A stretch of 32,000 nt of DNA from Geobacter sulfurreducens PCA (GCF_000007985.2 NC_002939.5:2250001-2282000); one strand, 5' to 3'. Numbered from the stretch's first letter, positions 7,190 to 32,000 are shown. Notes: generated by a model from the letters alone, not told the origin. Numbers and translations: made by a program.

Positions 7190-7203
7190 GAATACGGGGG
7201 CCT

Positions 7204-7251: not shown

Positions 7252-7262
7252 GGACCAACTAC

Positions 7263-9046: not shown

Positions 9047-9062
9047 CGGGTCCGTGACCGCA

Positions 9063-9094: not shown

Positions 9095-9105
9095 CTGGGC
9101 GATGA
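9079..9105 (+). promoter_or_regulatory. Sigma-28 (FliA)-type promoter candidate for the CheX-like gene
   Basis: TAAAGTTT (9079-9086), an 11-nt spacer, then GGCGATGA (9098-9105). The enterobacterial consensus is TAAAGTTT-N11-GCCGATAA, so the -35 matches 8/8 and the -10 matches 6/8. It lies 36 nt upstream of the ATG at 9141. Confidence 0.5.
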
Positions 9106-9140
9106 GAAAACTCAGAAACCACTGATCAAGGGGAACGCCC

Positions 9141-13364: not shown

Positions 13365-13683
13365 CGCCACCCTCCACGGAGCGGACGATGCCCGCCTGGA
13401 ACAGTTCCTTGAGCCGCTGCATGAGCGGATTCCCCTCCACTTTGCTGAAACGCCGGTCCAGATCGGCCAGCATGTCGTCGAGGGACTTTTCACCTTCGAG
13501 CTCAACCGGCCTGCCCTCAACGGTGAGAGTCTTCACCCCGAGATTACGCAGCCGCTCCAACAGGGCCGCTGTGATAACGGTTCCCTTGCCGCAGATCGGT
13601 GGACCCTGTGGGTTGTCAGCCCGCTTCACCTCCCGGGCCAAAACCATGTCCGGCGCGGCGAGGGCTATGGGAATGGTTTGCAT
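13354..13683 (-). CDS. Small conserved-looking hypothetical protein (109 aa)
   Basis: ATG at 13683 with GAGGAG 8 nt upstream. MQTIPIALAAPDMVLAREVKRADNPQGPPICGKGTVITAALLERLRNLGVKTLTVEG... resembles, from memory, the N-terminal module seen in some HD-GYP proteins. It overlaps the HDOD gene start. Confidence 0.6.
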   Translation of the reverse strand: MQTIPIALAAPDMVLAREVKRADNPQGPPICGKGTVITAALLERLRNLGVKTLTVEGRPVELEGEKSLDDMLADLDRRFSKVEGNPLMQRLKELFQAGIVRSVEGGGER

Positions 13684-13750
13684 CTGCCTAGCTCCTCATG
13701 AAAATTACATATCCGCATAAGTGTACCAGATAACGGTGCCGGCGCGAGTG

Positions 13751-16281: not shown

Positions 16282-16370
16282 TCGTGCGGCCTTCCGGATA
16301 TGGTATAAACTTGAATTTTACTAACACAGATCAGGTGGCATGTCCAATGGAAATTCGGCCGTTTAGCGCC

Positions 16371-16385
16371 TGGACCTGCCTATGC
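16371..16385 (+). promoter_or_regulatory. Weak sigma-54-type -24/-12 element upstream of glgP
   Basis: cTGGACctgccTATGCT has GG and GC with the canonical 10-nt separation. It lies about 35 nt upstream of the ATG at 16420. Positions other than GG/GC match the consensus poorly. Confidence 0.25.
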
Positions 16386-16419
16386 TATCCGCTTGTTTTC
16401 CCAATTGAAAGGTGCCCCC

Positions 16420-18933
16420 ATGATGGACGAGACGCTTCCCCCCTCCGAGCAGTCCGCCGAACTCGACACCCTGATGCTCATCATCAAGTCTTTTCTGGAA
16501 CACCTGGAGTACACCCTCGGCAAGGACAAATACTCAGCGACACGGCATGACATCTTCAACGCCTTGGCCTATGCGGTCCGCGACCGGATGGTGGAGCGAT
16601 GGCTCGACACCCAGCAGGCCTACTACAATCAGGACCCCAAGAGGATCTACTATCTCTCAATGGAATTCCTCATGGGGCGGACCCTGGAGAACAGCCTCGT
16701 AAACCTGGGGCTGCTGGACGATTTCCGTGACGCCATGAACTCCCTCGGCTTCGATCTGGATGTCCTCATCGACCAGGAACAGGACGCAGGGCTCGGCAAC
16801 GGCGGCCTGGGCCGACTCGCTGCCTGCTTCCTCGACTCCATGGCCACTATGGGGATTCCGGGCTACGGTTACGGCATCCGCTACGAGTACGGCATCTTCC
16901 GCCAGAATATCGTGGACGGGGCCCAGGTGGAATACCCGGACAACTGGCTCCGCTACCGCAATCCCTGGGAGCTGGACCGGCAGGAGCACCTTCACCCGGT
17001 CAAGTTCTACGGCCGGGTTGTAGAACGCAAGAACGCTGAAGGGAACACCGTCTTCGCCTGGATCGACACCGAGGATGTCATGGCCATGGCCTACGACACC
17101 CCGATCCCCGGTTTCGGCACTAACTCAGTGAACACCATGCGGCTGTGGACGGCCAAGTCCTCGCGGGACTTCGACCTGACCTTCTTTAACGAGGGGAACT
17201 ACATCCGGGCCGTTGAAAAGAAGATGCTGTCCGAGAACATATCGAAGGTGCTCTATCCGGCAGACCACATCCCCGAGGGCAAGGAACTCCGTTTCAAGCA
17301 GGAGTATTTTCTCGCCTCGGCCACCATCCAGGATGTGATCTACCGTTTCCGCAAGAATCACAGCGACCTGCGCCTGATCCCCGACAAGGTGGCCATCCAG
17401 TTGAACGACACCCACCCCTCCCTGGCCATTCCCGAGATGATGCGGCTGCTCATGGACCGGGAACGGCTCGACTGGGATACCGCGTGGGACATCACCACCC
17501 GGACCTTTGCCTACACCAACCACACCATCCTCCCCGAAGCCCTGGAAAAGTGGCCGGTCTGGTTCCTGGAGCAGATTCTCCCCCGCCACCTCCAGATCAT
17601 CTACGAAATCAACGACCGGTTCCTGGCTCAGGTCCGCCAACACTTCCCGGGTGACACGGGCCGTCTGGAGCGGATGTCGCTGGTGGAGGAGCACTGGGAG
17701 CGCAAAATCCGCATGGCGCATCTGGCCATTGTCGGCAGTCACTCGGTGAACGGCGTGGCGGCGCTCCACACTGAAATCCTCAAGGAAAAGGTATTTACCG
17801 ACTTTTTCGAGATGTGGCCCGAGCGGTTCAACAACAAAACCAACGGCATCACCCAGCGCCGCTGGCTGAAAAGCGCCAACCCGGGGCAGGCGGGACTAAT
17901 CAGCCGCGCGATCGGCGACGGCTGGATCACCGATCTGGACCAGTTGCGCAAACTCGCTGACCTTGCGAAAGACCGGGATTTCATTCATGCCTGGCAGCGG
18001 GTGAAGCAGGAGAACAAAAAGCGGCTGGCCGACTACATATTCCGGAACAATGAACTCCAGGTGAACGTAGACTCCCTCTTCGACTGTCAGGTCAAGCGGA
18101 TCCACGAATACAAGCGGCAATTGCTGAACGTGCTCCACGTCATCACGCTCTACAACAGGATCAAGGCAGCCCCCGCGGGAGACTTCGTCCCCCGCACCGT
18201 CATTTTCAGCGGCAAGGCGGCACCGGCCTACGCCCTGGCCAAGCTCATCATCCGGTTGATCAATGCGGTCGGCGACGTGGTCAACAATGACCCGGACGTG
18301 GGAGACCGTCTCAAGGTGGTGTTCCTGGCCAACTACAGCGTGTCGCTGGCGGAGAAGATATTCCCTGCCTCGGACCTTTCGGAACAGATTTCCACTGCCG
18401 GCACCGAGGCGTCGGGCACCGGCAACATGAAGTTCGCCCTGAACGGGGCTCTCACCATCGGGACTCTGGACGGGGCCAACATCGAAATCATGGAGGAAGT
18501 TGGGCGCGAAAACATCTTCATCTTCGGCATGACCGCCGGTGAAGTCGATGAACTGCGCCGGCGGGGCTACGACCCGAGGGATTACTACCACCGGATTCCC
18601 GAGCTCAAACGGGTGCTGGACCAGATTGCCGAAGGCTTCTTCTCGCCGGCCACGCCGGACCTCTTCCGCCCCGTCGTCGATGCCCTTCTCAACCAGGGCG
18701 ACAACTACATGCTGCTGGCCGATTATGCCTCCTACGTGGCCTGCCAGGAAGAGGTGAGCCGGCTCTACCTGGACCCGGACGAGTGGGCCCGCAGGGCGAT
18801 CCTCAACTGTGCCGGCATGGGCAAGTTTTCCAGCGATCGGACCATCGCCGAGTACGCCCGCGACATCTGGGGCGTGGAGCAGATGGAAGTCCGGCCCGTT
18901 CTCGAGTTCCGCAAGCATGACGGCCCGGCGTAA
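16420..18933 (+). CDS. glgP: Glycogen/maltodextrin phosphorylase
   Basis: The track start at 16393 is a TTG, so I prefer ATG 16420 with GAAAGGTG upstream. [43 protein letters not shown] (PLP lysine motif), about 837 aa. Confidence 0.92.
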
Positions 18934-18970: not shown

Positions 18971-20293
18971 ATGGACCTCTTTGATGCACCCGCTGCAGCA
19001 GAAGCCCTGAGGAATGCTCCCCTCGCCGAACGGATGCGTCCCCGCACCCTAGACGAGTACGTGGGACAGGAGCACTTGCTGGGCGAAGGGAAACTCCTGC
19101 GCCGACTGATCGAGTCGGACACTCTCACCTCCCTCATCTTCTGGGGCCCTCCGGGCTCGGGCAAAACAACCCTCGCCCGGGTCATCGCCAATGCAACAAA
19201 ATCTCACTTCATCTTCTTTTCCGCCATCCTCTCGGGAATCAAGGAAATCCGCGAGATAGTAAAGGAAGCGGAGGAGGAAAAAAAGTACCGGGGCCGCAAC
19301 ACCATCCTCTTTGTGGATGAGATCCACCGATTCAACAAAAGCCAGCAGGATGCGTTCCTCCCCTACGTGGAACGGGGAACCTTCACCATCATCGGCGCCA
19401 CCACCGAGAATCCCTCCTTCGAGGTGGTGGCGCCACTCCTCTCCCGCTGCAAGGTGCTCGTGCTCAATCCCCTTTCGCAGGAAAATGTGGAGCAGATCCT
19501 GCGGAGTGCCCTGGCCGATCCTGAACGCGGCCTCGGCGCGAGCGGCCTTGCCGCGGACGACGATGCCCTTGCCTTCATGGCAGAGCAGTCGGGCGGCGAC
19601 GGCAGGGTCGCTCTGAACACCCTGGAAACGGCAGCCCGTCTGGTAAAAAACGGCCGGATCGACCTGGAGTCCGTCCGCGAGGCGATTCAGAAAAAGCCGC
19701 TGCTCTATGACAAGGGGGGCGAAGAGCACTACAATGTGATCTCCGCGTTCATCAAGTCCATGCGCGGCAGCGATCCGGACGGCGCCCTCTACTGGCTCGC
19801 CCGCATGATCGAGGCCGGCGAGGACCCTCTCTTCATCCTGCGGCGGATGGTGATCCTGGCCAGCGAAGACATCGGCAACGCCGACCCCCGGGCGCTCCAG
19901 GTAGCCGTGGCGGCACTCCAGGGGTTTCAGCTCGTGGGCATGCCCGAGGGACGGATCATCATTGCCCAGGCCGCCACCTATCTGGCCACCGCGCCCAAGT
20001 CAAACGCCTCCTACGCCGGCATTGACGCGGCCCTGGCTGAAGTCAGGAAGAGCGGAGCCCTGCCGGTGCCGCTTCACATCCGTAATGCGCCCACACGGCT
20101 CATGAAGGACCTGGGCTACCATAAGGGGTACAAATATGCCCATGACTATGAGGCAGGCTACACGCCCCAGAACTATCTGCCGGAACGGCTTGAAGGAAAA
20201 CGATTTTATGCCCCGCGGGGGCACGGCTACGAGAAGACCATAAAAGAACGCATGGACTACATCCGCACACTGAAGGAGAACGACAGCGAATGA
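18971..20293 (+). CDS. rarA: Replication-associated recombination protein A (AAA+ ATPase RarA/MgsA)
   Basis: Trimmed to ATG 18971, since the upstream part of the track ORF overlaps the glgP 3' end. MDLFDAP...[22 protein letters not shown]...[15 protein letters not shown]...[15 protein letters not shown]. Confidence 0.9.
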
Positions 20294-21249
20294 AAAAAAT
20301 CGGCATACTCACCAGCGGCGGCGACTGCTCGGGCATGAACGCCGCTATCCGGGCCGCGGTGCGCACGGCTATCCGCATGAATATCGAAGTGGTCGGTTTC
20401 CGCAAGGGCTACCTTGGGCTCATGAAGGGGGATGCCATCCCCCTGGACACCAAGGCGGTCTCGGGCATTCTCCACCGGGGGGGCACCTTTCTCCAGTCGG
20501 CTCGCTCCCCCGAGTTCAAAACACCGGAAGGACAGCGCACGGCCCTGAACAACCTGAAGGCCCTCGGCGTCGAGGGAATGGTTGTAATGGGCGGCGACGG
20601 GTCGCTCACCGGTGCCCTGGCCTTGAACCGTCTGGGATTGCCGGTGGTAGGCATTCCCGCCAGCATCGACAACGACATCCCGTTCACCGATATGGCACTG
20701 GGGGTTGACACGGCCCTCAACAACATCATCTACGCCGTTGACTGTATCAAGGACACGGCCAGCTCTCACGCGCGGGCCTTTGTCATCGAGGTTATGGGGC
20801 GCCATTCGGGCTACCTTGCCAGCATCTCCGCCATCGCCACCGGCGCCGAGTACGCACTGGTCCCCGAACGGGAATACGATCTGGCCGAGATCTGTCAGCA
20901 GTTGCGGGCACGCTACGAGGAAGGGCGCGACAATGCCATCATCATTCTGGCGGAGGGGGCCGGTCATGGCCATGAAATCGCCAACAGCATCAAGGACGCC
21001 ATCGGCTTCGAGACGCGGGTGACGGTGCTGGGTCACTACCAGCGCGGAGGCGCGCCGACGGTATTTGACCGGCTGTTGGCGAGCCGCTTGGGAAAGAAAT
21101 CAGTTGAGCTGCTGGTGACAGGCACGTGGGGAGTGATGGTGGGACTGTCCTGCAATGCAATCCTCGCCACCCCCCTGGAGGATGTCATCAAGGGTGAGAA
21201 GCGTCCTCAGGACGAGGTGCTGCGCTTGGCCGAGGTGCTGGGCGTATGA
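20290..21249 (+). CDS. pfkA: ATP-dependent 6-phosphofructokinase
   Basis: 319 aa. [22 protein letters not shown]...VMGGDGSLTGA...IPASIDND...VMGRHSGYLA. The ATG overlaps the rarA stop (ATGA at 20290-20293). Confidence 0.92.
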   Translation: MKKIGILTSGGDCSGMNAAIRAAVRTAIRMNIEVVGFRKGYLGLMKGDAIPLDTKAVSGILHRGGTFLQSARSPEFKTPEGQRTALNNLKALGVEGMVVMGGDGSLTGALALNRLGLPVVGIPASIDNDIPFTDMALGVDTALNNIIYAVDCIKDTASSHARAFVIEVMGRHSGYLASISAIATGAEYALVPEREYDLAEICQQLRARYEEGRDNAIIILAEGAGHGHEIANSIKDAIGFETRVTVLGHYQRGGAPTVFDRLLASRLGKKSVELLVTGTWGVMVGLSCNAILATPLEDVIKGEKRPQDEVLRLAEVLGV

Positions 21250-21274
21250 GGGGGGGCGGTGCCGGGCGGCCCGG

Positions 21275-21913
21275 TCACCCGAGAAGGTCTATGATCTCGC
21301 GGTGGTGCTCCATCCGGTACGCGGCGGGGAGCGGGGCCTTGTAGGCCACGAAGGGGACGCCGGCAGCCTCGGCCGACAACCGGTCCACCTCGGAATCACC
21401 CACGAACAGGGCCTCCCGTGGGCCGATGCCGAAGTGTTCGAGCACCTTCAGCAGGGGTTCCGGGTGGGGTTTTGGGTTCGTCACCCGTGACGCGGTCATG
21501 ACAATGCTGAAATAGGAGTCGAGACTGAACAACCGGAGCACCATGTCCATGGAGGTCGACCGGTTGGTGCAGACACCGAGCCCCACCCTCCCCTTCAGGG
21601 TGTCGAGGGCCTCGCGGAATCCCTCCTCCATGATCATGAGCGGGACCAGTTCCCGGTAGTCGATGGCGCCGGCACACCGGACCGCCTCCTCCCAGTCGCC
21701 GGGTGACGGGAAGAAATGGGCCAGCACCTCCCGATTGGCGTACGTGTGGAGGATGCGCATCTGCTCCTCGTTATCCCTGCTGAGCCGGGGGCGGCCCATC
21801 ATCTCCATGATCCGCTGGTAAAACGCGAGGTTCGCCTCGAATGAGTCGAACATGACCCCGTCACAATCGTAGATTACCGCCTTGATGGCCCCGCCGTTAC
21901 TGCTCACCGCCAT
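21275..21913 (-). CDS. HAD-superfamily hydrolase (phosphatase, PGP/beta-PGM-like subfamily)
   Basis: 212 aa. The motif I sequence is VIYDCDGVMFDS, followed by GVCTNRS and a late VGDSEVD motif. ATG at 21913. Confidence 0.8.
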   Translation of the reverse strand: MAVSSNGGAIKAVIYDCDGVMFDSFEANLAFYQRIMEMMGRPRLSRDNEEQMRILHTYANREVLAHFFPSPGDWEEAVRCAGAIDYRELVPLMIMEEGFREALDTLKGRVGLGVCTNRSTSMDMVLRLFSLDSYFSIVMTASRVTNPKPHPEPLLKVLEHFGIGPREALFVGDSEVDRLSAEAAGVPFVAYKAPLPAAYRMEHHREIIDLLG

Positions 21914-22202
21914 TCCTCGCCTTTTCGAGATACTCTTCCCACTCCAGGGGGAGGAGGTATTTCTTCCGGTTATTGCATTCCTTGCAGGCCGGTACCACGT
22001 TTCCCCTGCTGCTTTTGCCGCCGCGCACGATGGGAACCACGTGGTCCATGGTCAACTCTTCGGGCGGGAAATCCCCCCCGCACCAGTGGCACGTACGGCG
22101 GCTGATGACTGTCTGCCACCAGCGGCTCCGGCGCAGTTCTCGGGCTTTGTCCTTCTCCCGCCGGATCTCCTGGTCCGTCACTTCCACTACGAAATAGGTC
22201 AT
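21897..22202 (-). CDS. Small free-standing HNH endonuclease (101 aa)
   Basis: Trimmed to ATG 22202, giving MTYFVVEVTDQEIRR.... The HNH core is CHWCGG...LTMDHVVPIVRGGKSSRGNVVPACKECNNRK. The start lies 16 nt after the rnhA stop and the stop overlaps the HAD gene start by 17 nt. Confidence 0.8.
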   Translation of the reverse strand: MTYFVVEVTDQEIRREKDKARELRRSRWWQTVISRRTCHWCGGDFPPEELTMDHVVPIVRGGKSSRGNVVPACKECNNRKKYLLPLEWEEYLEKARNGGEQ

Positions 22203-22218
22203 GGCTCCCTGCCACACG

Positions 22219-22668
22219 CTACCGGCGTTCGTTCCGGTACGCATCGATGGCACGGCGCGCCAGGGCATCGCACCGCTCGTTCTCCGGGTGTCCGTTGTGG
22301 CCTCGTACCCAGACCCACCTGACCTGATGCTTCCCGGTCAGCTCCCTGAGCCGCTCCCAGAGATCACGGTTCAGGACCGGTTCCTTCTTGCTGTTCACCC
22401 ATCCCCGACGCACCCAACCGGAAAGCCATTCAGTCATCCCCTTCACCAGATATTGGGAATCGGTGGTGATCGTCACGGCACAGGGACGGCTGAGGGCTTC
22501 CAGCGCCCTGATGGCAGCGGTAAGCTCCATCCGGTTGTTGGTTGTATCGCCATCGGCGCCCGAAAGCTCCTTTTCCGCGCTGCCGTAACGCAGGATCGCG
22601 CCGTATCCCCCCACTCCGGGGTTACCACTACAGGCGCCGTCGCAGAACACCTCAACTTCTGCCGACAT
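22219..22668 (-). CDS. rnhA: Ribonuclease HI
   Basis: The track start at 22698 is a TTG. GGAGG abuts ATG 22674, so ATG 22668 is preferred. [26 protein letters not shown]...[16 protein letters not shown]...TDSQYL...[14 protein letters not shown]. Confidence 0.9.
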
Positions 22669-23305
22669 AGGCATCCTCCCCCTTGAGCAAGTCGGCAATG
22701 GCAGCCATTACCCGATCCACGATCAGTTGGTGGGTTTCCTTGCAGTCATCTCGGGCAAAAAGATCGTCCAGTTCCAGAGGGGCACCGAACACAACCATGC
22801 CCTCCTGCCCCAAGCCGGGAAACTTCCATCGGTTGAGGCCGATGAGTGCCGTGGGAATAACGGTGACCCGGGTGTCGTAGATAATCTTCCCGACCCCGCG
22901 GTTCCCCTTGCCGAGCACGCCGTCTTTGTGGCGGGTTCCTTCGGGAAAGAGCATAACCTTTTCGGTCCGGAGCAGATCGTTTATGGTCTTGCCGGCACGG
23001 ACGTCCCTGCCCCGCTTGACCGGGAAGGCACCCCACGAGCTGTAGAGAAAACGCTGGAAGGGCTTGGCAAAGAGCTCCTCCTTGGCAGGAGCCCAGACCA
23101 TTCGGAATGGATGGTAACGCAGAATCGCCCAGGGGAGAAAGATGGTCTCGTAGGCCGAGATATGGTTGGATGCGATAAGGGCTCCGCCGTCCCGGGGGAT
23201 ATGTTCCACCCCCTTGACGCGGAACCTGTTGATGAGCGATGCGTAGCTGCCGACGACGAATGCGGAAAACGTCACCCAGAACCGACGAAGAAACGATACC
23301 TTCAA
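22652..23305 (-). CDS. plsC: 1-acyl-sn-glycerol-3-phosphate acyltransferase family (PlsC-like)
   Basis: 217 aa. The acyltransferase motifs are NHISAYE (H-x4-D/E) and FPEGTRH. TTG start at 23305 with GAGAGG 5 nt upstream, and there is no in-frame ATG near the N-terminus. Confidence 0.75.
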
Positions 23306-23333
23306 ATGAGCCTCTCTGTACAGATGTTGTTAT

Positions 23334-23363
23334 CTTATAGCATGGTTCCGGAAATAACGGCAA
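23334..23363 (-). promoter_or_regulatory. Sigma-70-like promoter candidate for plsC-rnhA-HNH-HAD
   Basis: Minus strand reads TTGCCG (23363-23358), an 18-nt spacer, then TATAAG (23339-23334). It lies about 29 nt upstream of the TTG start. Confidence 0.4.
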
Positions 23364-23409
23364 CGGTAATGCTGTTCGTCACGGGAGCGCCGGATCCGAT
23401 GCCGTGCCG

Positions 23410-23450
23410 AAAAAGAACGAGGGAGGCATGTCGTGCCCCCCTCTTCTCGT
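23410..23450 (-). terminator. Intrinsic terminator closing the giant-protein operon
   Basis: Minus strand reads ACGAG-AAGAG-GGGGGCA, loop CGACA, then TGCCTCC-CTCGT, followed by TCTTTTTCGG. That gives 7+5 bp including one G-U pair and an internal bulge. It lies about 55 nt after the stop at 23506. Confidence 0.7.
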
Positions 23451-23505
23451 CATCTCTCCACGAAGGATCCGGATCAGAACGAACCGTCGATCACGGCCGC
23501 TACCA

Positions 23506-26500
23506 TCAGAGCATCTCGCCCAGATATGTCCGGATGTCGTGGCCGTCAATCCTGCCGTTGCCGTTACTATCCGGAAGGATGGAACCGGCTTCCCCCCTTC
23601 TGAGTATCTGCATGAAGTCGCCGGGCGTCACCACACCATTACCGTTTGCGTCAAAGGCATCCATAATCGATTGGGCACTGAAGCCGATGACCGCGCCCGC
23701 GGGAACATCGGAACTCCTGCGATACACTGTCACGGTGAAGGACTGGTATGCCTTCAGCCCCTTGGCGTCGGACACTTCGACCTTGACCGGATAGGTACCC
23801 GTATCCTTCGGAGTCCACTGGATGAGTCCGGTCGAGGAACTGATGCTCATCCCCGAAGGGCGTGTCACCAGCTTGTAGGTAACGGTATCGCCGTTGGGGT
23901 CCGTTGTGTTTACGTCGTACCGATAGATCTTATTGCGAATCGCCGCTGTGGCCGGGGCAGAAGTGACGACCGGCGGCAGGTTGACGACTGCAGGGATCAC
24001 TGTCCAAGCAAAGACGGTACTCGTCGAGGCGGACCCGTCACTTACGGTCACGGTCACGGTAAAGGGCCCAGCTGCCGCTGCTCCGGCAGCAGTGGTGCCG
24101 CTGATGAGCCCGGTGGACTCGTTGATGCTGAGACCGGCGGGAAGGCCCGTGGCACTGTAGAAGATCTTGTCGCCGTTGCTGTCGCTGGCTCTGATCTGGA
24201 GATTAACCGGTTTCTCTTCCCATGACGTCTGATTGCCGGGATTCGTAACTGTTGGAGCGCTGTTGCTGGTTATGACCCGCAGCGTATAGCTCTGGGTTGC
24301 CTTCAGTCCCTTCGCATCCGCCACCTCTACCGTTACCGTGTAGCTGCCAGTATCTTGGGGCGTCCACGAAATGAGGCCAGTGGAAGAACTGATGGTCATA
24401 CGCGAGGGGCGTTGGATGAGCCGGTAAGTCAGCGCATCGTTATTGGGATCAACGGCGTTGACGTCGTAGCGGTACGCCTTCTCCTTTTCCGCGATCAGGA
24501 TCGGGGAGGAAATGATCACCGGCGGCTCGTTGACGACCTGACTGTTCACGGTCCAACTGAATGTTGTACTTGACGTCGTCATGCCGTCTCCCACGGTGAC
24601 AACGACATTGTACGCCCCGGCGACGGTGGCGGTGCCACTGATGAGACCCGAACCGGAGTTGATGGCAAGGCCGGAGGGAAGGTCCGAGGCACTGTAAATG
24701 AGGCTGTCGCCGCAATTCTGGTCAGTGGCCTGGATCTGCAGACTCACGCCATTGTTCAGGGGACTGCTCTGGTTGGCAGGCTTGATCACTATCGGCGCGA
24801 CGTTGGTTTTGGTTACCACCCATGAGAACATGGTACTGCCGCTGAGGTTACCCGGGTCCTTGGCCATTATGGTCACAGGGTAGGTACCGGCGCTGCAATA
24901 AGGTATGTTACCGCTGATCAGGCCGGTTTTGCTGTTCATGGTGAGGCCCGGCGGCAGGCCGGCGGCACTGTAGGTGAGGCCGTCTCCGTTGACATCGGTG
25001 GCCTGGATTTGGAGGCTGACGCTGCCATTCTCGGGACTGGCCTGATCGGCGGGCTTGGTTACCACCGGAGCAGTCGGCGGTATGATGACCATCCAGGTAA
25101 AGGTCGTTCTGGTCGTAGCCGTTCCATCGGTCACGGAAACGGTTATCGTGTAGGTTCCCACAGTGGTGGGGATGCCGCTGATGAGACCTGTAGCACTGTT
25201 GATGCTGAGACCTGTCGGCAGCCCAGAGGCACTGTAGGTGAGGGCATCGCCATCTGCGTCGATCGCCTGGATCTGGAGGTTGACCATTACGTCCTTGTCG
25301 CTGGTCTGGTCCGCAGGCTTTATAACGGCTGGAGGCTGCTGAGGCGCCATAGTGACGGTGATGCTCACGCTCCTGGTGGCCGTGGTGTAGTTGACGGCAT
25401 CGGCGGGCGTGAAGGTGGCCGTCAGGGTGACCGGGCCCGCAGTGGAGAGAACGGTGCCGGCTGCGGGATTGTAGCTGAAGCTGCCTGCTACGTCGGCAGT
25501 GGCGTTGAGCTGGTTCGACCCGAGGACCGTGCCCGCATAGACCGCTGCCGGCTCGGCCCAACTGATGGCGGGAACGGCACGGGCGATTGCGAGTGTTCCC
25601 GTGGCGCTGCCGCTGTAGTTGGCATCGGTGACCGTGGCGACGACGGGGTAGCTCCCGGCGGCTGTCGGCGCGCTGCTGCCCCCGGCATAGGTGAGGTTGA
25701 TGCCGAGGCCAGGCGGGATCGTGCTGGCGGCAACGGCCTTTGGCGTGCCGTCATAGGTGGCGCTCAGGCCGGTGAGCGATACGGAGGCAACGGCCTTGTC
25801 AACCGTCAGGCTGACGGTGGCGCTGGCGCTGGTGTATGCGTTCGGGTCGCTCGGGGTGAAAACCACCGACAGGGTCCGGGTCCCGGCGTTGAGGACAGTG
25901 CCGGCGGCAGGGGTGTACACGAAGGTGCCGGGCACGCTCGCCGTGGCGTTGAGCTGGGTGCCGCCGAGAGCTGTCCCGTAGGTGATGGCACCAGGAGTCG
26001 CCCAACTGATGCTCGGGGTCTGCTTGACATAGGCCGTCACGGTCCAGGTAAAACTTGCGCTTCCTTTGGCGTTGGAGGGGTCGGTGGCGGTGACGGTGAC
26101 GGTGTAGGGGCTGCCGGCGGCGGCGCTGTAGTCAATGGTTCCGGTAATGGCACCCGTAGAAGCGTTGATGGCAAGGCCCGCAGGCAGGCCCGTGGCACTG
26201 TAGGTAAGAGCGTCACCATCAGGGTCGGTGCCGGCGACGGTAAGGTTGACGACCGTCCCCTCAACATTCGTGCGGTTCGCCGGAGCGATGACACCCGGCG
26301 CACGGTTCACGTCGGTCACGGTCCAGGAAAAACTCACGCTGCTGCTGGTTATCCCATCACCAACCATAACTCTTACAGAGTAGATGCCGGCAGCCGTGTA
26401 ACCCAGGGTGCCGGTGATGACTCCGGAAGATGAATTGATGCTAAGCCCCGGAGGAAGTCCCGTGGCACTGTAGGCAAGGGTGTTGTTGTCCGCATCGGAC

Positions 26501-28845
26501 GCCTTGATATGGAGATTGACCGCCGTCCCCTCGGGGGTAGACTGGTCAGCCGGCATTGTTACCACCGGAGCCCTGTTCGTGTCGGTCACCAGCAGCGTGT
26601 AGGTCTGAGTGGCAAAGAGGCCAGCCGGATCGCTCACCTTTACCGTCACAGTATAGCTGCCGGCATCGGTATAACCAGGATTCCAAGAGATGAGCCCGGC
26701 CGGCGAGATCGTCATGCCCGGGGGGGATGCTGTCAGACTGTAGGTAAGAGCGTCGCCGTCCGGGTCGCTGGCGGAGACGGCGTATCCGTACGCGGCACCC
26801 TCGCTTACCGAGGTGACGGCAGTTGACGTGATGCCCGGCGCACGATTGAGCTTCGTTACCGTTACCGTAAAGGTCTGGGTGGCGGAGAGCGCCCCGTCGC
26901 TTACCGTTACGACAACCGTATGTGCGCCGGCCTGGGATGCGAGAGGAGTCCAGGAGATGGTGCCGTTCGCGGCAATCGACATGCCCGAGGGCGCAGTGGT
27001 GAGTGCATAGGTGAGGGAGTCGCCGTTGGGATCGCTCGCCACCACCTGATAACTGTACAGGGCTCCTTCCGTGGCGCTCGTCACCGGCGAGGAAGCGATC
27101 AACGGAGCTTGGTTGACCTTGCCGTCAGTGACCGTAATGGTGAAGCTCTGGGTTGTCCTGTTGAACTTCGTATCAGTCACCGCCACGATGACATCCCAGT
27201 TGGCCGGTGTCGAGCTTGAGGGTGTCCAGGTGAGGGTGCCGGTGGTCATGCCCATTGCCATGCCGGTGGGAAGCGTTTTGCCCGTGGGCGCGCTGATGCT
27301 GTAGTAGAGCGTGTCCCCGTCCGGGTCCGTGGCGGAGACGGTGTAAGAGTAGAGTTGCCCCACAACGGCGGCTGTCACGGGACTCGATGCAATGACCGGC
27401 GGCCTGTTGGCCGGAGCCACGGCGACCGAGAAGCTCTGGGTAGCGGCGAGCTGACCGTCGCTCACCCGCACGGTTACCGGGAAGGTTCCGGTCTGGCTGT
27501 TCGTGGGGGTCCACTGGACAAGGCCGGCCGAGCTGATTGACATGCCCGACGGCGCGGCGTCAAAGGAGTAGGTCAGTACCGTGCCGGCATCGGCGTCGGA
27601 GGCGCGCACCTGGTACGTGTAAAGGGCGGACGCGGACGCAACGGTTGCGGGCACTGAGGAAATCTGCGGCGGATGGTTGCAGAGCGCGATCGTATCCTGC
27701 ACATAGCGGGGATAGGTTTCATCGCTCAATCCCATGGTCAGGTTGTTGGCCGTGTTTGCCGCGATGTCACGGGGCGAATTGTACAGGACCGTTGCCTGGA
27801 ACGTCTGCTGCCCGGCGCCTTTGGCGAGCAGGGGCAAACTCCAGACAATCTCCCGCGTGTCCGCCTTGTACTCTCCCCCGTTGGTTGCGGAGACAAAGTC
27901 AATGCCGGCGGGTAGCTTGTCTGAAATCAGAAGGTTGTGTAGATCGATGGTATTGACCGTGTTGTCGTAGGTATAGGTGTAGGTGAGCGGCTGAGCGTAT
28001 GCCGCGCACTGGCCGGGATGGGTCTTGGCAAGGAACAGGGGCTTCGAGGGGTACGCCTCGTCGGCAATCTCGAAGGAGACGGAGCCGTTCGCGGGGATCG
28101 CCAGGTCCCACTGGATCGCAAACTGAACGTCCGCATTGGTATTGGTGTACGGGCCGCCGAAATTATCGAGATTGTAAGGAGTGGAGCCATTGGCGAGGAG
28201 GCCGATGAACTGAGTCATGTCGACGCCGTATCTGCTGGGCGAAAGGGTTGACGACTGAACCACGCTGTAGCCGTTGCCGTTCTTGTCGCTGGTACTCGTG
28301 AAGCCGGACTGGAAGGCCCTTTTCCCCACGATGGCCACGTTGTCGTTACTGAAGGGAAGACTCAGGTCGTAATCGGAGTAGGCATAGAAATGGAAGTCAA
28401 GAGGGGAACCTCTAAGGTTCTTGATCGTGATGACTCGTTTCAGGGTGGACCTTTTGCTCCCCGTCGCGCCACCCGTAAGGCGATAGGCAACTTCAACGGA
28501 ATAGGTGCCGTCCAGGGAGGTATAGACAAGGGCAAGCGCCGCAGGGTCCGCCTGGTTCGCCGGACGCGTGACGGTGAACATGCCTTCGGCGTCAACGTCA
28601 TTGGATATCAGCGGATACTCGGGCCCGGAGGTCCCGACACGGCAGTAGAAGCCCAACTGGCTCACTATCTGCTTGCCGTCGATCGTCCAGCCGTATACGC
28701 CGTAGGTGGAGGCATCTTCGAAATTCACCGTGGAATTCCGGCTGGACAGAGTCCAATCGGCAGCCTCCACGACACCGGAGGCAATGCCGAGCCCCACCAG
28801 CACAGCCACCGCGACCGCCCTGCACAAACTTGCTAGAGTTTTCAT
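23506..28845 (-). CDS. Giant secreted repeat protein (1779 aa): signal peptide, unknown beta-rich N-domain, DUF11-like domain, 12 cadherin-like Ig (He_PIG-type) domains, 3 MBG-like domains, C-terminal dockerin-like module
   Basis: The track start at 28851 is a GTG only 3 nt after GAGGAG, so ATG 28845 (spacing 9) is preferred, giving MKTLASLCRAVAVAVLVGLGIASGVVEA/ADW. There are repeated ~90-aa units with D-x-[DN]-x-D...LTY motifs, YDG-type MBG repeats, and a C-terminal DANGNGVVTPGDF...DSNGNGRIDGHDI. No CXXCH, LPXTG or PEP-CTERM motif was seen. Confidence 0.9.
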   Translation of the reverse strand: MKTLASLCRAVAVAVLVGLGIASGVVEAADWTLSSRNSTVNFEDASTYGVYGWTIDGKQIVSQLGFYCRVGTSGPEYPLISNDVDAEGMFTVTRPANQADPAALALVYTSLDGTYSVEVAYRLTGGATGSKRSTLKRVITIKNLRGSPLDFHFYAYSDYDLSLPFSNDNVAIVGKRAFQSGFTSTSDKNGNGYSVVQSSTLSPSRYGVDMTQFIGLLANGSTPYNLDNFGGPYTNTNADVQFAIQWDLAIPANGSVSFEIADEAYPSKPLFLAKTHPGQCAAYAQPLTYTYTYDNTVNTIDLHNLLISDKLPAGIDFVSATNGGEYKADTREIVWSLPLLAKGAGQQTFQATVLYNSPRDIAANTANNLTMGLSDETYPRYVQDTIALCNHPPQISSVPATVASASALYTYQVRASDADAGTVLTYSFDAAPSGMSISSAGLVQWTPTNSQTGTFPVTVRVSDGQLAATQSFSVAVAPANRPPVIASSPVTAAVVGQLYSYTVSATDPDGDTLYYSISAPTGKTLPTGMAMGMTTGTLTWTPSSSTPANWDVIVAVTDTKFNRTTQSFTITVTDGKVNQAPLIASSPVTSATEGALYSYQVVASDPNGDSLTYALTTAPSGMSIAANGTISWTPLASQAGAHTVVVTVSDGALSATQTFTVTVTKLNRAPGITSTAVTSVSEGAAYGYAVSASDPDGDALTYSLTASPPGMTISPAGLISWNPGYTDAGSYTVTVKVSDPAGLFATQTYTLLVTDTNRAPVVTMPADQSTPEGTAVNLHIKASDADNNTLAYSATGLPPGLSINSSSGVITGTLGYTAAGIYSVRVMVGDGITSSSVSFSWTVTDVNRAPGVIAPANRTNVEGTVVNLTVAGTDPDGDALTYSATGLPAGLAINASTGAITGTIDYSAAAGSPYTVTVTATDPSNAKGSASFTWTVTAYVKQTPSISWATPGAITYGTALGGTQLNATASVPGTFVYTPAAGTVLNAGTRTLSVVFTPSDPNAYTSASATVSLTVDKAVASVSLTGLSATYDGTPKAVAASTIPPGLGINLTYAGGSSAPTAAGSYPVVATVTDANYSGSATGTLAIARAVPAISWAEPAAVYAGTVLGSNQLNATADVAGSFSYNPAAGTVLSTAGPVTLTATFTPADAVNYTTATRSVSITVTMAPQQPPAVIKPADQTSDKDVMVNLQIQAIDADGDALTYSASGLPTGLSINSATGLISGIPTTVGTYTITVSVTDGTATTRTTFTWMVIIPPTAPVVTKPADQASPENGSVSLQIQATDVNGDGLTYSAAGLPPGLTMNSKTGLISGNIPYCSAGTYPVTIMAKDPGNLSGSTMFSWVVTKTNVAPIVIKPANQSSPLNNGVSLQIQATDQNCGDSLIYSASDLPSGLAINSGSGLISGTATVAGAYNVVVTVGDGMTTSSTTFSWTVNSQVVNEPPVIISSPILIAEKEKAYRYDVNAVDPNNDALTYRLIQRPSRMTISSSTGLISWTPQDTGSYTVTVEVADAKGLKATQSYTLRVITSNSAPTVTNPGNQTSWEEKPVNLQIRASDSNGDKIFYSATGLPAGLSINESTGLISGTTAAGAAAAGPFTVTVTVSDGSASTSTVFAWTVIPAVVNLPPVVTSAPATAAIRNKIYRYDVNTTDPNGDTVTYKLVTRPSGMSISSSTGLIQWTPKDTGTYPVKVEVSDAKGLKAYQSFTVTVYRRSSDVPAGAVIGFSAQSIMDAFDANGNGVVTPGDFMQILRRGEAGSILPDSNGNGRIDGHDIRTYLGEML
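23509..23715 (-). other. C-terminal dockerin type-I-like duplicated Ca-binding loop-helix module (residues ~1713-1781 of the track ORF)
   Basis: There are two D-x-N-x-N-G-x-[VI]-x-x-x-D loops, each followed by a short helix: DANGNGVVTPGDFMQILRR and DSNGNGRIDGHDIRTYLGE. Confidence 0.55.
23716..25341 (-). repeat. Ig-repeat array II: six cadherin-like (He_PIG-type) domains, order B-B-B-A-B-A
   Basis: Residues 1171-1712. B-type example: VNLQIQAIDADGDALTYSASGLPTGLSINSATGLISG. A-type example: KAYRYDVNAVDPNNDALTYRLIQRPSRMTISSSTGLISWTP. The period is about 265-290 nt and is also visible at DNA level. Confidence 0.8.
25342..26022 (-). repeat. Three MBG-like Ig-fold domains
   Basis: Residues 944-1170. 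ISWATPGAITYGTALGGTQLNATASVPGTFVYTPAAGTVLNAGTRTLSVVFTP, then LSATYDGTPKAVAAS...YAGGSSAPTAAGSYPVVATVTDANY, then ISWAEPAAVYAGTVLGSNQLNATADVAGSFSYNPAAGTVL. Confidence 0.65.
26023..27672 (-). repeat. Ig-repeat array I: six cadherin-like (He_PIG-type) domains, order A-A-A-A-B-B
   Basis: Residues 394-943. Examples are LYSYTVSATDPDGDTLYY, LYSYQVVASDPNGDSLTYAL...GTISWTP and AVNLHIKASDADNNTLAYSATGLPPGLSINSSSGVITG. Confidence 0.8.
27772..27996 (-). other. DUF11-like (conserved repeat domain) module
   Basis: LTYTYTYDNTVNTIDLHNLLISDKLPAGIDFVSATNGGEYKADTREIVWSLPLLAKGAGQQTFQATV matches the remembered DUF11 pattern (..tNtg...v.v.D.LPaG..fvsa...g......v.W.l..l..g...t....v). Confidence 0.5.
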
Positions 28846-28899
28846 TTCCACACGCTCCTCGTACTTGCAGTTCCCGACTGAAAAGGCTCCGTCATAGCG

Positions 28900-29865
28900 T
28901 CATTGAATACGAATATCTATTGTTGCTGCGCGCTTCAGCTCTTCAACGATTTCCTCGACCTTCTTGCGTTGGTAATCCTTTGCCAGATACTGCTCGATGA
29001 AATCCCGCATCTCTTCGAAGGTCCTGACCGTTTCGGGATGCCGTTCCATCACCCTGATAATGTGAAACCCATGGTGCGTCTTGACGATTCCGCTCGTCTC
29101 ACCCGGTTTGAGGGAAAAGGCGACCTGGTCGAACTCGCGCGGCATGAAGCCCCGCTGAATCTCTCCCAGATCTCCGCCCTTGGCGGCACTGGCGCAATCG
29201 GAGCTCTCGCTGGCAAGAACGGCAAAATCGGCGCCGGCGCCAATCCGGTCGCGAATGCCCTCGATCTTTTTCCGGGCCTCCGCCTGAGTCTCCGGGGAAG
29301 CCTCTTTTTCGACCTTCACCAGGATATGCCGGACAGCGATTGTCTCAGGCTTTTTAAAACCGGACTTGTTCTTTTCGTAATAGGCCCTGAGATCCGTTTC
29401 GGGAACCTTGATCGCATCGATGCCGCGCGAGGCCAGATAGGCGTCCACAAGGACGTCGCGGCGAGCGGTGTCGTTAAGTCTGTCCTCGGACGGTGCCACC
29501 ACGCTCCCGCCCCGGGATACGCTCGAACCGATGGCTTCCCGGCGGGCCTGAATCTTTTTGGACAGATCGGCAGGATTCAGCTTTTCGCCCGCCTGGGCCA
29601 GCAACTCCATCGCAATAAGCTTATCGAGCTCCTGGCGCTCGACTCTCTTCTTCTGCTCGTCGGTAACCTTACGCCCGGCTCCCCTCCGTCGACTCAAGGC
29701 AAATTCGACGAAATGATCGAGTTCGTCCCGGAAGATGACGGCGCCGTTCACAACAGCCGCAGCGGCTCTGCCGGAGGGAGCGACGGCCGTTTCGGCGCCG
29801 GGCGCGGACGGAACGCTTCCCAGCAAGCACAGAATGGTAATAATGAGGTTGCGTACTGTCTTCAT
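28900..29865 (-). CDS. Secreted peptidyl-prolyl cis-trans isomerase, parvulin type with a SurA/PrsA-like N-terminal chaperone region
   Basis: Signal peptide is MKTVRNLIITILCLLGSVPSAPGA/E. The PPIC rotamase core is VRHILVKVEKEASPE...DFAVLASESSDCASAAKGGDLGEIQRGFMPREFDQVAFSL...GIVKTHHGFHIIRV. An alternative GTG start at 29883 would overlap the protease stop (GTGA). Confidence 0.85.
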   Translation of the reverse strand: MKTVRNLIITILCLLGSVPSAPGAETAVAPSGRAAAAVVNGAVIFRDELDHFVEFALSRRRGAGRKVTDEQKKRVERQELDKLIAMELLAQAGEKLNPADLSKKIQARREAIGSSVSRGGSVVAPSEDRLNDTARRDVLVDAYLASRGIDAIKVPETDLRAYYEKNKSGFKKPETIAVRHILVKVEKEASPETQAEARKKIEGIRDRIGAGADFAVLASESSDCASAAKGGDLGEIQRGFMPREFDQVAFSLKPGETSGIVKTHHGFHIIRVMERHPETVRTFEEMRDFIEQYLAKDYQRKKVEEIVEELKRAATIDIRIQ

Positions 29866-29879
29866 CGTGCCCGCCCGAC

Positions 29880-31337
29880 TCACAGCTGCTCCGGAACGGC
29901 CGTCACCCGCGCCGATGTTCCCGGTTTGCCGTGGGGGATCAGCACCAGCCTGACAGTGCCGGATGCCGTGTAGCTGAACGATACCGCCCCTTCAGTCCCA
30001 CGCCGGAAGCGGATAAAGCTCACAAGAGGCCCGTCGGCGCTCCCGACGCGGACTTCAAGCGCCTGCAACGTCGCTCCCGTAATGTCCAGCCGGTAGGTCG
30101 AGTTCGCCAGATCAAGGGCTGCAGCAGATGCACACCGTTTCCCCCGCGGCGTGGTGACCACCGTCTCGATGTTCGGCGGCGACAGAACGGCCTTGGCTAC
30201 GTCAACGAGGCCGTAACCATAGTAGATGTCCCTGCCCATTTCACCCAGGTCCCGGGCGGCTGCCGCAAGTCGTTGCCTGACCTCGTCGGCAACGGAGCGG
30301 TTACCGTTGGTGTCGGTGGTGCCGGCCGAGATGAGAAGCGCCGCCGCACCGGTGACATGGGGTGCGGCCTGCGATGTGCCGAAGTTGATGCGGTAGCCGC
30401 CGCCGATCGCCGTGGAATAGATATTGTGCCCCGGTGCGGCCAATTCGACCTGGGGACCGTAACTGGAAAACGTTCCAAGCGTGTCGTCCTGGTAGGTGGC
30501 GGAAACCGCCACGACCGAATCGAAAGCGGCGGGATAGAGTACGGCCCCCGGCGAGAAATTGCCGGCCGAAGCCACCAGCACGATTCCCGATCGATAGGCC
30601 AGATCGCAGACATCCTTGAGCGCCTGGGAGAACTCCATGCTGCCGAAGCTCATGTTGACGACCTGCATCCGGTTCTCGATGGCCCACTCGATGCCGGCGA
30701 TAATGTCGCTCAACTCTCCGCCGAGGCCGCCGTTAAGCACCTTGACCGCATAGAGCTCCGCTGCGGGCGCGACGCCGACCACACCGGTACCGTTGTTGCG
30801 GGCGGCGATGATCCCGGCCACGTGGGTGCCATGGCTGAGGGAGTATGCGTCGTCCATGGGATCGTTGTTGTCTGCTACAAAGTTGTACCCCCCCTTGTAG
30901 TTGTCCTTCAAATCGGGATGCGTGTAATCAATGCCCGTATCGAGCACTGCCACCCGGACCCCCGCGCCGGTGATGCCGGCCGCCGCAACCTGGTCGGCAC
31001 CGATGTGCTGCGCGCCCCACGCTGCGGCATACTCCTCCGGCGAAGCCGCGGCCGGTTCAATGGACGAAAGCACGAAGTCCGTCTCCACGTAGGCAACGTC
31101 GGGATCTTTCTTCAGGCGCTCGATCTCTTCTTCGGACAGGGTTGCCGATATGGCGTTTACCGCAGAGTGCGTCCTCTTGACGCGACCGCCGTGCCGATAG
31201 ACCTTCTCTTTGTGGCGAACGTCCCTTTTTTCCACCGTGGAGCGAAATCCTACAATGACCTTCCTGTCGGCGGCAAAAGCGTCACCCAGAGGAGGCAGCA
31301 GGATAAAAAGAGCCGTAACGGCGAGCAGATACCTCAT
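29880..31337 (-). CDS. Secreted subtilisin-like serine protease (peptidase S8) with an I9-type propeptide and an extra C-terminal beta domain; candidate OzpA-type cytochrome-maturation protease
   Basis: 485 aa. Signal peptide is MRYLLAVTALFILLPPLGDAFA/AD. The propeptide is KVIVGFRS...ISATLSEEEIERLKKDPDVAYVE. The catalytic residues are D133 (VAVLDTGID, codon 30941-30939), H169 (HGTHVAG, 30833-30831) and S322 (GTSQAAPHVTGAAALL, 30374-30372). About 95 extra C-terminal residues follow. Confidence 0.9.
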   Translation of the reverse strand: MRYLLAVTALFILLPPLGDAFAADRKVIVGFRSTVEKRDVRHKEKVYRHGGRVKRTHSAVNAISATLSEEEIERLKKDPDVAYVETDFVLSSIEPAAASPEEYAAAWGAQHIGADQVAAAGITGAGVRVAVLDTGIDYTHPDLKDNYKGGYNFVADNNDPMDDAYSLSHGTHVAGIIAARNNGTGVVGVAPAAELYAVKVLNGGLGGELSDIIAGIEWAIENRMQVVNMSFGSMEFSQALKDVCDLAYRSGIVLVASAGNFSPGAVLYPAAFDSVVAVSATYQDDTLGTFSSYGPQVELAAPGHNIYSTAIGGGYRINFGTSQAAPHVTGAAALLISAGTTDTNGNRSVADEVRQRLAAAARDLGEMGRDIYYGYGLVDVAKAVLSPPNIETVVTTPRGKRCASAAALDLANSTYRLDITGATLQALEVRVGSADGPLVSFIRFRRGTEGAVSFSYTASGTVRLVLIPHGKPGTSARVTAVPEQL

Positions 31338-31416
31338 GGTGCACGTATCCCTTCACGTTCGACGATGGTGAATCACATCGCGAATGCATGTAAATGATGT
31401 CTGGGGAGGAGATGGA

Positions 31417-31441
31417 GGGCAGGGGAACGAATCCCCTGCCC
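31417..31441 (-). terminator. GC-rich stem-loop directly after the upstream ORF stop (attenuator or 3'-end stabiliser; no U tract)
   Basis: GGGCAGGGG and CCCCTGCCC form a 9-bp perfect stem with a 7-nt loop, 17 nt after the TAA at 31459-31461. Downstream is pyrimidine-rich (TCCATCTCCTCCCC) rather than a U run. Confidence 0.35.
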
Positions 31442-31458
31442 CGTTGGTCGGAAAGGTA

Positions 31459-32000
31459 TTACCGTTTGACTTTCTTCGGAGCCGCCAGGATTTTGCCGGA
31501 GAGCGGACCGTTGATGGTTTTTACGGTCACGTAGCCGTTGGTTGCAAAGTCCGGGCTGGTGGCAACCACCTTGGTGTCGCTCCAGGAAATGACGTTTGCC
31601 TGGGTGGTTCCGGCGTACACACCGATACCGGCGTCGTACTCGGAGCTCGGTGCCGGTCCGAAACCGGTGCCGGTAATGGTAAGGGTCTTGCCAGTCGCAA
31701 GGGTGGCGGAGGCAATGATCCGCGCCGGCGCGACGGTCAGCTTGGCAAGGTTGCTGACCTTGTTGGCCTTGGTGATGCGGAGCTCGTAGACGCCTTCAAC
31801 GAGGGCGGGTACGGACACCTTGATCTCGCTTTCGGTGACCGAGAAGGGAGTGAGTGTCAGGCTCGTGCTGCCGCTGACGAGCGCAACAGTGGGCTGATAG
31901 GTGGTCACGCCGTCGGGTCCGACGTTGACGAAGCTGGAGCCGACGATGGTCAGGACGGCTTCCTTGCCCGCGGTGACCGTGTAGCTGCTCTGGCCGTTGA
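31459..32000 (-). CDS. C-terminal ~180 aa of a secreted protein with tandem IPT/TIG-like Ig-fold domains (5' end outside the window); possibly the cleaved C-terminal tail of an OmcZ-type multihaem cytochrome precursor
   Basis: The frame is open from the right edge: NGQSSYTVTAGKEAVLTIVGSSFVNVGPDGVTTYQPTVALVSG...KTLTITGTGFGP...VISWSDTKVVATSP...GYVTVKTINGPLSGKILAAPKKVKR. The track M at 31908 is an internal GTG. No Cys and no CXXCH occur in the visible part. The identity is inferred from synteny with the downstream S8 protease. Confidence 0.6.
   Translation of the reverse strand, partial: NGQSSYTVTAGKEAVLTIVGSSFVNVGPDGVTTYQPTVALVSGSTSLTLTPFSVTESEIKVSVPALVEGVYELRITKANKVSNLAKLTVAPARIIASATLATGKTLTITGTGFGPAPSSEYDAGIGVYAGTTQANVISWSDTKVVATSPDFATNGYVTVKTINGPLSGKILAAPKKVKR

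Follow-up and report, generated by a model that had tools for sequence, protein, structure and literature searches.

The window analyzed here is a stretch of 32,000 nucleotides (nt) from one strand of the Geobacter sulfurreducens PCA genome (NC_002939.5:2250001-2282000). Our interest is in its right-hand part, from position 23,410 to 32,000, which contains four open reading frames (ORFs) arranged head to tail on the minus strand: the 3' end of the cytochrome gene omcZ, the protease gene ozpA, a gene for a parvulin-type peptidyl-prolyl isomerase (PPIase) and a giant gene for a protein of 1779 amino acids (aa). Positions 19880-32000 of the window were identical to G. sulfurreducens KN400 (CP002031.1) at 12121 of 12121 bases, and the region is almost certainly the omcZ gene cluster of G. 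sulfurreducens, GSU2076 to GSU2073. An earlier note, made from the sequence alone, had placed these genes at the omcZ/ozpA locus, and the exact match to KN400 confirms it. The first three genes and the locus are already known; the giant fourth gene is the sole unstudied part and represents a modest new lead. Our confidence is high for the cluster's identity, anatomy and conserved linkage taken together; the tethering mechanism considered below falls outside that judgement.

Gene order and transcription signals of the omcZ cluster

The cut ORF at the right edge of the window (31459..32000, minus strand) was identified by translation and Pfam as the 3' end of omcZ (GSU2076), encoding residues 295-473 and the stop codon. 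After a gap of 121 nt follows ozpA (GSU2075; 29880..31337, minus strand), which according to translation and Pfam encodes an S8 protease of 485 aa. The parvulin-type PPIase gene, GSU2074 (28900..29883, minus strand), begins either at an ATG at position 29865 (321 aa) or at a GTG at position 29883 (327 aa), which gives a spacing of 14 nt to ozpA or a GTGA overlap of 4 nt, respectively. Both starts are in use in public gene calls, and GGAG is located 5 nt before the GTG. Another 54 nt separate this gene from the giant gene GSU2073 (23506..28845, minus strand), the 1779 aa of which are counted from an ATG preceded at 9 nt by GAGGAG. The N-termini MRYLLAVTALFILLPPLGDAFA, MKTVRNLIITILCLLGSVPSAPGA and MKTLASLCRAVAVAVLVGLGIASGVVEA are Sec-type signal peptides as judged by eye only. 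The locus tags of omcZ, the subtilisin (GSU2075), the isomerase (GSU2074) and the acyltransferase (GSU2072) were taken from the literature, whereas GSU2073 was assigned by position, since GSU2074 is the PPIase and GSU2072 the acyltransferase. The latter, plsC, is located at 22652-23305, on the 3' side of the terminator of the cluster, and thus adjoins the giant gene as the earlier note had claimed; the four minus-strand genes and the gaps between them that it had described were likewise borne out.

The OmcZ filament is needed for thick, high-current anode biofilms and is, to our knowledge, the most conductive cytochrome nanowire known. The full omcZ gene was read from the identical KN400 locus (L001:8458-9879) and encodes a protein of 473 aa with eight haem motifs, seven of the CXXCH type and one CX14CH, all of which are located outside the window, beyond its right edge. 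The protein matched PDB entry 8d9m_A over residues 1-473 (1082 bits) and entry 7lq5_A over residues 25-282. Based on the eight haem motifs and these two structural matches, we conclude that the ORF is OmcZ; the rightward extension proposed earlier, in search of haem motifs upstream, thus had a positive outcome. No model for OmcZ was found in NCBIfam. The part of the protein encoded in the cut ORF (residues 295-473) contains two TIG domains (Pfam, E 2.9e-12), and the sequence FGNSS, the published cleavage site of OmcZ (PMC9473688), is found at residues 280-284 of the full protein, beyond the edge of the window. According to published work, the exported precursor of OmcZ has 50 kDa, and its two C-terminal TIG domains block polymerization; once OzpA has cut after FGNSS, the 30 kDa part with its eight haems assembles by itself into conductive filaments. 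The part of omcZ within the window is the two-TIG pro-region that OzpA removes.

The ozpA product displayed a Peptidase_S8 domain (E 1.3e-58) and an Inhibitor_I9 propeptide (E 4.9e-07) in Pfam, the motifs DTGID, HGTHVAG and GTSQAAPH of the Asp-His-Ser triad in its translation, and a C-terminal extension of about 100 aa. Its best PDB match is pro-subtilisin E (3whi). The exact protein is present in KN400 and in many assemblies, and ozpA is located directly downstream of omcZ in nearly all bacterial and archaeal omcZ loci. The earlier identification of the S8 gene downstream of omcZ as ozpA agrees with the 121-nt gap and with the S8 and I9 domains. The secreted subtilase OzpA converts OmcZ from 50 kDa to 30 kDa (PMC9473688, PMC12307469, bioRxiv 10.64898/2026.07.18.739370).

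GSU2074 has a rotamase domain of the PPIC type, which matched the Rotamase family with 102.5 bits against a cut-off of 21.7 (E 2.6e-29), and its N-terminal region may be SurA/PrsA-like, with SurA_N_3 at 24.7 bits, below the cut-off of 27.2 (both in Pfam). The NCBIfam matches were PPIase equivalogs only, all far below their cut-offs. Insertions in this gene caused a strong electrode-growth defect in transposon insertion sequencing, a study which placed the gene in 'the omcZ operon' and found insertions to be harmful in most genes of that operon (PMC5585712, Chan 2017). Expression of omcZ, ozpA and the prolyl isomerase in Shewanella produces filaments, which do not couple to the metabolism of the host; deletion of the isomerase there leads to less OmcZ production, and in vitro OmcZ and OzpA are sufficient for filament assembly (bioRxiv 10.64898/2026.07.18.739370). 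According to another preprint, OmcZ, the peptidase and the isomerase make up the whole cluster that nanowire assembly requires (bioRxiv 10.1101/2023.08.01.549754). The statement in the earlier note that the PPIase has no described function is thus out of date, given the growth defect and the loss of OmcZ in Shewanella. The accompanying guess of a folding helper is already in print: the parvulin helps OmcZ to fold and accumulate. Maturation of OmcZ is accounted for by the precursor, the protease and the isomerase, and the window adds nothing to this.

The gap between omcZ and ozpA contains a G+C-rich hairpin of 11 bp (31416..31442, minus strand), identified by folding and located 17 nt past the omcZ stop codon; the sequence behind it is CCAUCUCC, without a U tract. 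The intrinsic terminator that closes the cluster (23409..23443, minus strand) has a stem of 10 pairs, 7 of them G-C, at 23419-23443, followed by GTTCTTTTT, a tract also given as GTTCTTTTTC. In the terminator scan this was the single good minus-strand terminator in positions 22500-32000, in agreement with the earlier claim that the hairpin in the 121-nt gap lacks a U tract and that the sole convincing terminator follows the last gene. A promoter scan of the same positions, which is weak evidence, detected no sigma-70-like site within the cluster on its coding strand, and an internal promoter before the giant gene, considered as a candidate, found no support in this weak scan. No match to Rfam was obtained anywhere in the window at gathering thresholds.

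The hairpin was further compared across loci L007-L032 by folding the first 90 nt past the omcZ stop codon. A strong hairpin was present at the same position in 20 of the 21 Geobacterales loci, with stems of 11 to about 20 bp and z-scores of -2.2 to -7.7 relative to mononucleotide shuffles. The sequences of these hairpins differ between loci, and a U tract follows in L011, L024-L026 and L032. The second omcZ cluster of one genome (L021) showed no hairpin after omcZ.

The hairpin is probably a partial terminator or a 3'-end stabilizer that keeps the level of omcZ mRNA above that of the downstream genes. That it limits the mRNA for the helper proteins is suggested by its conservation in combination with the weaker induction of GSU2075, for which an array fold-change of 2.08 was reported as compared to 5.7 for omcZ (PMC2680965, Nevin 2009). 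Judging from its position, it would reduce transcription of the three genes behind it, leaving the filament subunit in excess of its helpers, which suggests a simple way to set subunit versus helper levels and is in itself a modest lead. The conserved hairpin, its U tract in several species and the lower fold-change of GSU2075 would also fit an arrangement in which the four genes are not one operon, with most transcripts ending at the hairpin and the downstream genes transcribed from a start of their own. We consider such an arrangement unlikely, since reverse-transcription PCR across the omcZ-GSU2075 junction was designed and the genes were treated and stated as one operon by the authors (PMC2680965), no coding-strand sigma-70-like site was seen in the gap by the weak scan, and a gsu1771 mutant shows a joint increase of GSU2074 and GSU2075. 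GSU2073 is not in the supplementary list of that RNA sequencing study.

Outside the right edge of the window, the KN400 locus contains a non-coding spacer of about 1.15 kb between rodA and omcZ (L001:7304-8457) with one minus-strand gene call of 50 aa, possibly a long leader or a regulatory region. Two OmcZ paralogues are present in some genomes, namely L007 and L022 from one metagenome-assembled genome and L017 and L021 from another, and one protein labelled as G. sulfurreducens (P0034) is only 52% identical to OmcZ.

Domain architecture of GSU2073

Based on its predicted domains, GSU2073 appears to be a secreted, haem-free, fibrillar-adhesin-like protein. A signal peptide, judged by eye, is directly followed by the head of the protein. 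The Pfam matches comprise He_PIG (12 copies), Big_9, MBG and weak Dockerin/EF-hand hits, and the proline content is 6.4% across about 20 beta-sandwich domains. The protein contains no CXXCH motif and six Cys in 1779 aa, and it was ruled out as a multihaem cytochrome for lack of that motif. It was also ruled out as a PEP-CTERM protein, its tail being dockerin-like instead.

The N-domain of the head (approximately residues 29-270; 28036..28761, minus strand) was delimited from an AlphaFold2 model, Foldseek and an alignment. It spans about 240 aa and has the conserved motifs WFWYRxG, PLDFHxFxYSDYD and QFxxQWD. The model built from 18 sequences had a predicted local distance difference test (pLDDT) score of 90.4 and a predicted template modelling (pTM) score of 0.88; an earlier model from 6 sequences was discarded (pLDDT 57.8). 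A Foldseek search with the final model returned N-domains of GH94 phosphorylases and aldose-1-epimerase-like proteins with E-values of 6e-10 to 1e-7, TM-scores of 0.4-0.5 (best about 0.48) and 9-14% identity among the matches listed. No Pfam or NCBIfam model matched the head domain at threshold. The model thus points to a galactose-mutarotase-like beta-supersandwich, with the match being at the level of the fold only. Domains of this fold class usually bind carbohydrate.

The head N-domain is followed by a DUF11-like beta-sandwich (approximately residues 271-395; 27661..28035, minus strand), delimited with TIGR01451 and the alignment. It scored 25.5 bits with TIGR01451 against a cut-off of 24, contains two conserved Cys and ends in LCNHPP. 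Thousands of DUF11-repeat proteins match the query in this part only. The stalk (23722..27660, minus strand) consists of about 12 cadherin-like immunoglobulin (Ig) repeats of the He_PIG/Big_9 type, as seen from Pfam and from motifs. He_PIG reached 670.8 bits over 12 stretches, Big_9 was found in 10 stretches, and 11 DxDGDxLxY motifs are present; MBG domains interrupt the repeats at approximately residues 960-1170.

The C-terminal tail (23509..23721, minus strand) is a dockerin-type double EF-hand with the loops DANGNGVVTPGD and DSNGNGRIDGHD. Dockerin_1 scored 19.7 bits on the whole protein, which is below the cut-off of 22.9, and 24.3 bits on the 71-aa tail alone, for which EF-hand_6 scored 34.4 bits. 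Among the tails of the GSU2073 family, 8 of 10 matched Dockerin_1. The name dockerin used in the earlier note thus stands for the isolated tail and fails for the complete protein, and as a prediction the label is marginal.

Among the homologues of GSU2073 the head is constant and the stalk variable, with total lengths from 534 to about 2400 aa. The predicted layout would be that of a fibrillar adhesin, with a binding-type head, a spacer and an anchoring end.

Conservation of the giant gene and contents of the same slot in other lineages

The conservation of the locus was analyzed in two directions. In the forward test, an OmcZ profile scan of species-representative genomes gave 75 loci, in which relatives of the downstream genes were then located. 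The scan returned no locus from G. sulfurreducens itself, although OmcZ contains both of the search patterns, probably owing to masking of the source region in that collection; the best match was 59% identical. A head-bearing gene was found beside the PPIase gene in 17 of the 18 Geobacterales and Desulfuromonadales loci with enough downstream DNA, with 33-47% identity over the head (residues 1-395). It is located directly after the PPIase gene, at gaps of 0-120 nt, except in L013, where it lies between ozpA and the PPIase gene; the latter position was also observed in L085 and L088. Ten of the 17 linked loci lack the mreC-PBP2-rodA flank of G. sulfurreducens, showing that the linked block persists in different contexts. 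In the reciprocal test, metagenomes were scanned with a profile of the head, and 11 of the 13 loci with a full head adjoined omcZ-ozpA-PPIase.

Clusters (50% identity) with a full head numbered only about 25, and the head was N-terminal in all of them. This result is from an exhaustive search of representatives, used in place of a word-indexed homology search that gave 3 matches with the head and 6 with the profile. The head was absent from omcZ loci outside Geobacterales (Desulfobulbales, Gammaproteobacteria, Nitrospirota and archaea). Thus, the linkage of the giant gene to omcZ is real and old, and it is confined to one order. The synteny with omcZ/ozpA homologues proposed in the earlier note was accordingly found within Geobacterales. 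Its statement that the giant gene has no described function also stands, as GSU2073 is named in no paper found, nor did we find a paper in which a Geobacter protein of the cadherin, dockerin or adhesin kind is linked to OmcZ.

The head also occurs in other settings. A paralogue of 1578 aa has an Lcl_C/Big_9 protein of 645 aa as its neighbour, with a gene for cytochrome c assembly close by (L089:8001-9017, L090:7839-12575). The head N-domain alone is found in proteins of 270-300 aa that end in a PEP-CTERM signal (P0123, P0124 and P0125: VPEP...RRR). These belong to a sizeable, uncharacterized family that is common in soil and sediment metagenomes (L093-L161) and shows no link to omcZ.

In Desulfobulbales, Thiodiazotropha, Nitrospirota and other bacteria, omcZ-ozpA-PPIase is kept and followed by other secreted proteins. 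These are a cytochrome of 363-368 aa preceded by an ORF of about 170 aa, InlB-B-repeat proteins, or CXXCH-bearing proteins with CarboxypepD_reg and F5/8-type-C (discoidin) domains. Slot proteins outside Geobacterales are located at L056:14591-16603, L069:5494-7503, L071:6929-9499 and L072:14656-18324, and further at L046:14564-15655, L059:7749-10331 and L065:7316-10381. An extra multihaem cytochrome of 395 aa is encoded within the cluster at L024:14100-15287 and also in L032, between the PPIase gene and the giant gene. The N-terminal three-haem module of the L024 cytochrome, which includes a CXnCH site, is 32% identical to the N-terminus of OmcZ over 124 aa (E 2e-9). No significant similarity was obtained between the L024 cytochrome and the 363-aa cytochrome of the Desulfobulbales-type loci.

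Archaeal loci contain omcZ-ozpA and no parvulin within 10 kb. An isomerase in the clusters of Borgs and Methanoperedens is described in a preprint, and the archaeal isomerase may be of another type or located elsewhere. In loci of anaerobic methanotrophic archaea of group 2 (ANME-2), a NosD beta-helix and a clear Dockerin_1 domain are part of the OzpA homologue, and the product of the gene after it combines NosD with Dockerin_1. A Methanoperedenaceae locus encodes an OzpA homologue with a DUF11 domain at its end, located between two MtrC-like cytochromes, one of 1053 aa and one of 1228 aa. The archaeal genes are located at L034:11409-13448 and 13724-15154, L042:3975-5132, and L057:11359-13239, 6430-9591 and 13239-16925.

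Possible roles of the giant protein and comparison with known systems

Whether the giant protein is directly linked to OmcZ in function is, in our assessment, evenly poised. As shown in published work, the OmcZ precursor is exported and folded with the help of the isomerase, OzpA removes the TIG pro-region, and the 30 kDa part polymerizes. Since filaments form without GSU2073, the giant protein would be an accessory rather than an assembly factor, and it may link the filaments, or the matrix rich in OmcZ, with exopolysaccharide or the cell surface. We propose this tentatively, because the predicted end domains and the extracellular nature of the protein fit such a role. Three further observations are circumstantial: the dockerins on the ANME-2 OzpA homologue and on the product of the next gene, with DUF11 on the Methanoperedens OzpA homologue; the large surface proteins at the same slot in other bacteria, several of them with haems; and the uncoupling of the Shewanella filaments from host metabolism, for which there are many other possible causes. 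More doubtful still is the extended form of the proposal, according to which the GSU2073 family would be a dedicated, Geobacterales-specific fourth component of the OmcZ system, tethering filaments or matrix with the head at one end and the dockerin-type tail at the other, while in other lineages haem-bearing surface proteins would take this slot and in ANME the dockerins would be on the protease.

Several observations limit the evidence from domains and from synteny. The identity of the head to mutarotase-like domains is about 11%, and this is no proof of sugar binding. The dockerin tail is present in many of the homologues, not in all. No cohesin was seen in the loci read, in which no search aimed at cohesins was made. 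In one locus (L009), two multihaem cytochromes occupy the position of the giant gene, and in L021 no start of a giant gene was found in about 500 nt past the PPIase gene. The near-identical L089 and L090 carry their paralogue of the head away from omcZ. Finally, all linked loci belong to one order, and shared ancestry inflates the counts.

The last two points would equally be expected if the giant gene encoded a general biofilm or surface adhesin that is a neighbour of omcZ by chance, its conservation reflecting shared descent within Geobacterales. This is a real possibility, although we hold it to be somewhat less probable than a direct link. The protein is not needed for filaments, stalk length and tail type vary widely among the homologues, and the head domain alone is often met in soil PEP-CTERM proteins unlinked to omcZ, all of which is consistent with a general adhesin. 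Chance proximity is harder to reconcile with an adjacency that is kept down to 33% identity of the head and in at least two genomic contexts, with the 11 of 13 loci in the reciprocal test, and with gaps of 0-120 nt to the PPIase gene and no terminator before the giant gene in the window. In L013, L085 and L088, moreover, the gene is located inside the cluster, between ozpA and the PPIase gene.

The giant protein could instead be a client, if OzpA and the PPIase process and fold it in addition to OmcZ and the shared dependence keeps the genes together. A protein with 6.4% proline across some 20 beta-sandwich domains, encoded immediately downstream of a PPIase and a protease, would be a suitable substrate, and in archaeal loci the protease itself carries dockerin or DUF11 modules similar to those of the giant protein. 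However, the protease and the PPIase do not depend on the giant gene, since both are kept in clusters where it is absent, and we consider this explanation improbable. As for a scaffold required for OzpA cleavage and polymerization, in line with the maturation role suggested in the earlier note, the shared direction, tight spacing and conserved linkage of the genes would fit, but the idea is largely refuted and very improbable, as omcZ, ozpA and the PPIase gene are enough for filaments in Shewanella and purified OmcZ and OzpA are enough in vitro, none of the omcZ clusters of Desulfobulbales, Gammaproteobacteria, Nitrospirota and archaea contains the gene, and the protein has no haem motif.

We return to the proposal that the giant protein attaches OmcZ filaments or matrix to exopolysaccharide or the cell surface. 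Little is known of how cytochrome filaments are anchored to the cell or electrically interfaced with it (PMC12307469, a 2025 review). A conserved, extracellular fourth gene product with binding-type ends would be a reasonable and cheap candidate for anchoring, although a modest lead. If true, it would offer a molecular way into the question of how cytochrome nanowires are fixed in position and linked with cells.

The giant protein and its gene share features with several known systems. Similarity to the flocculation protein PepA (NF033554) is weak, at about 23 bits against a cut-off of 80. PEP-CTERM/exosortase proteins share the head N-domain, which stands alone in P0123-P0125, whereas the giant protein itself has no PEP-CTERM signal. 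Like the dockerins of cellulosomal dockerin-cohesin systems and the non-cellulosomal dockerins of ANME, the tail is a duplicated, putatively Ca-binding loop that reaches the Dockerin_1 threshold on its own; in contrast to the cellulosomal dockerins, its score is marginal and many homologues have no such tail. The osc cluster of the OmcS nanowire (Shen 2025, as cited in the 2026 preprint) is also described there as a cytochrome filament gene with neighbouring accessory genes, including one for a highly repetitive protein; as far as this citation goes, its cytochrome and accessory proteins are unrelated to those of the omcZ cluster.

Fibrillar adhesins of Gram-negative bacteria, such as the LapA, SiiE and Bap types, resemble it in overall predicted layout, as they too have a signal peptide, an end domain, a long, variable, Ca-binding Ig stalk and a terminal anchoring module. 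The giant protein differs from them in that its head is N-terminal and its presumed anchor C-terminal, that the head is mutarotase-like with a DUF11-like domain, and that its gene is linked to a cluster for a cytochrome nanowire; neither a type I secretion signal nor a retention module was seen in it. The nanowire cluster of omcZ, ozpA and the isomerase gene (GSU2076-GSU2074) is the same locus as the one analyzed here and shows no difference in its first three genes. Nevin 2009, Kai 2021, Gu 2023 and Wang 2022 are cited for this cluster. The published descriptions of the omcZ cluster stop at three genes and leave out the fourth, which encodes the protein of 1779 aa.

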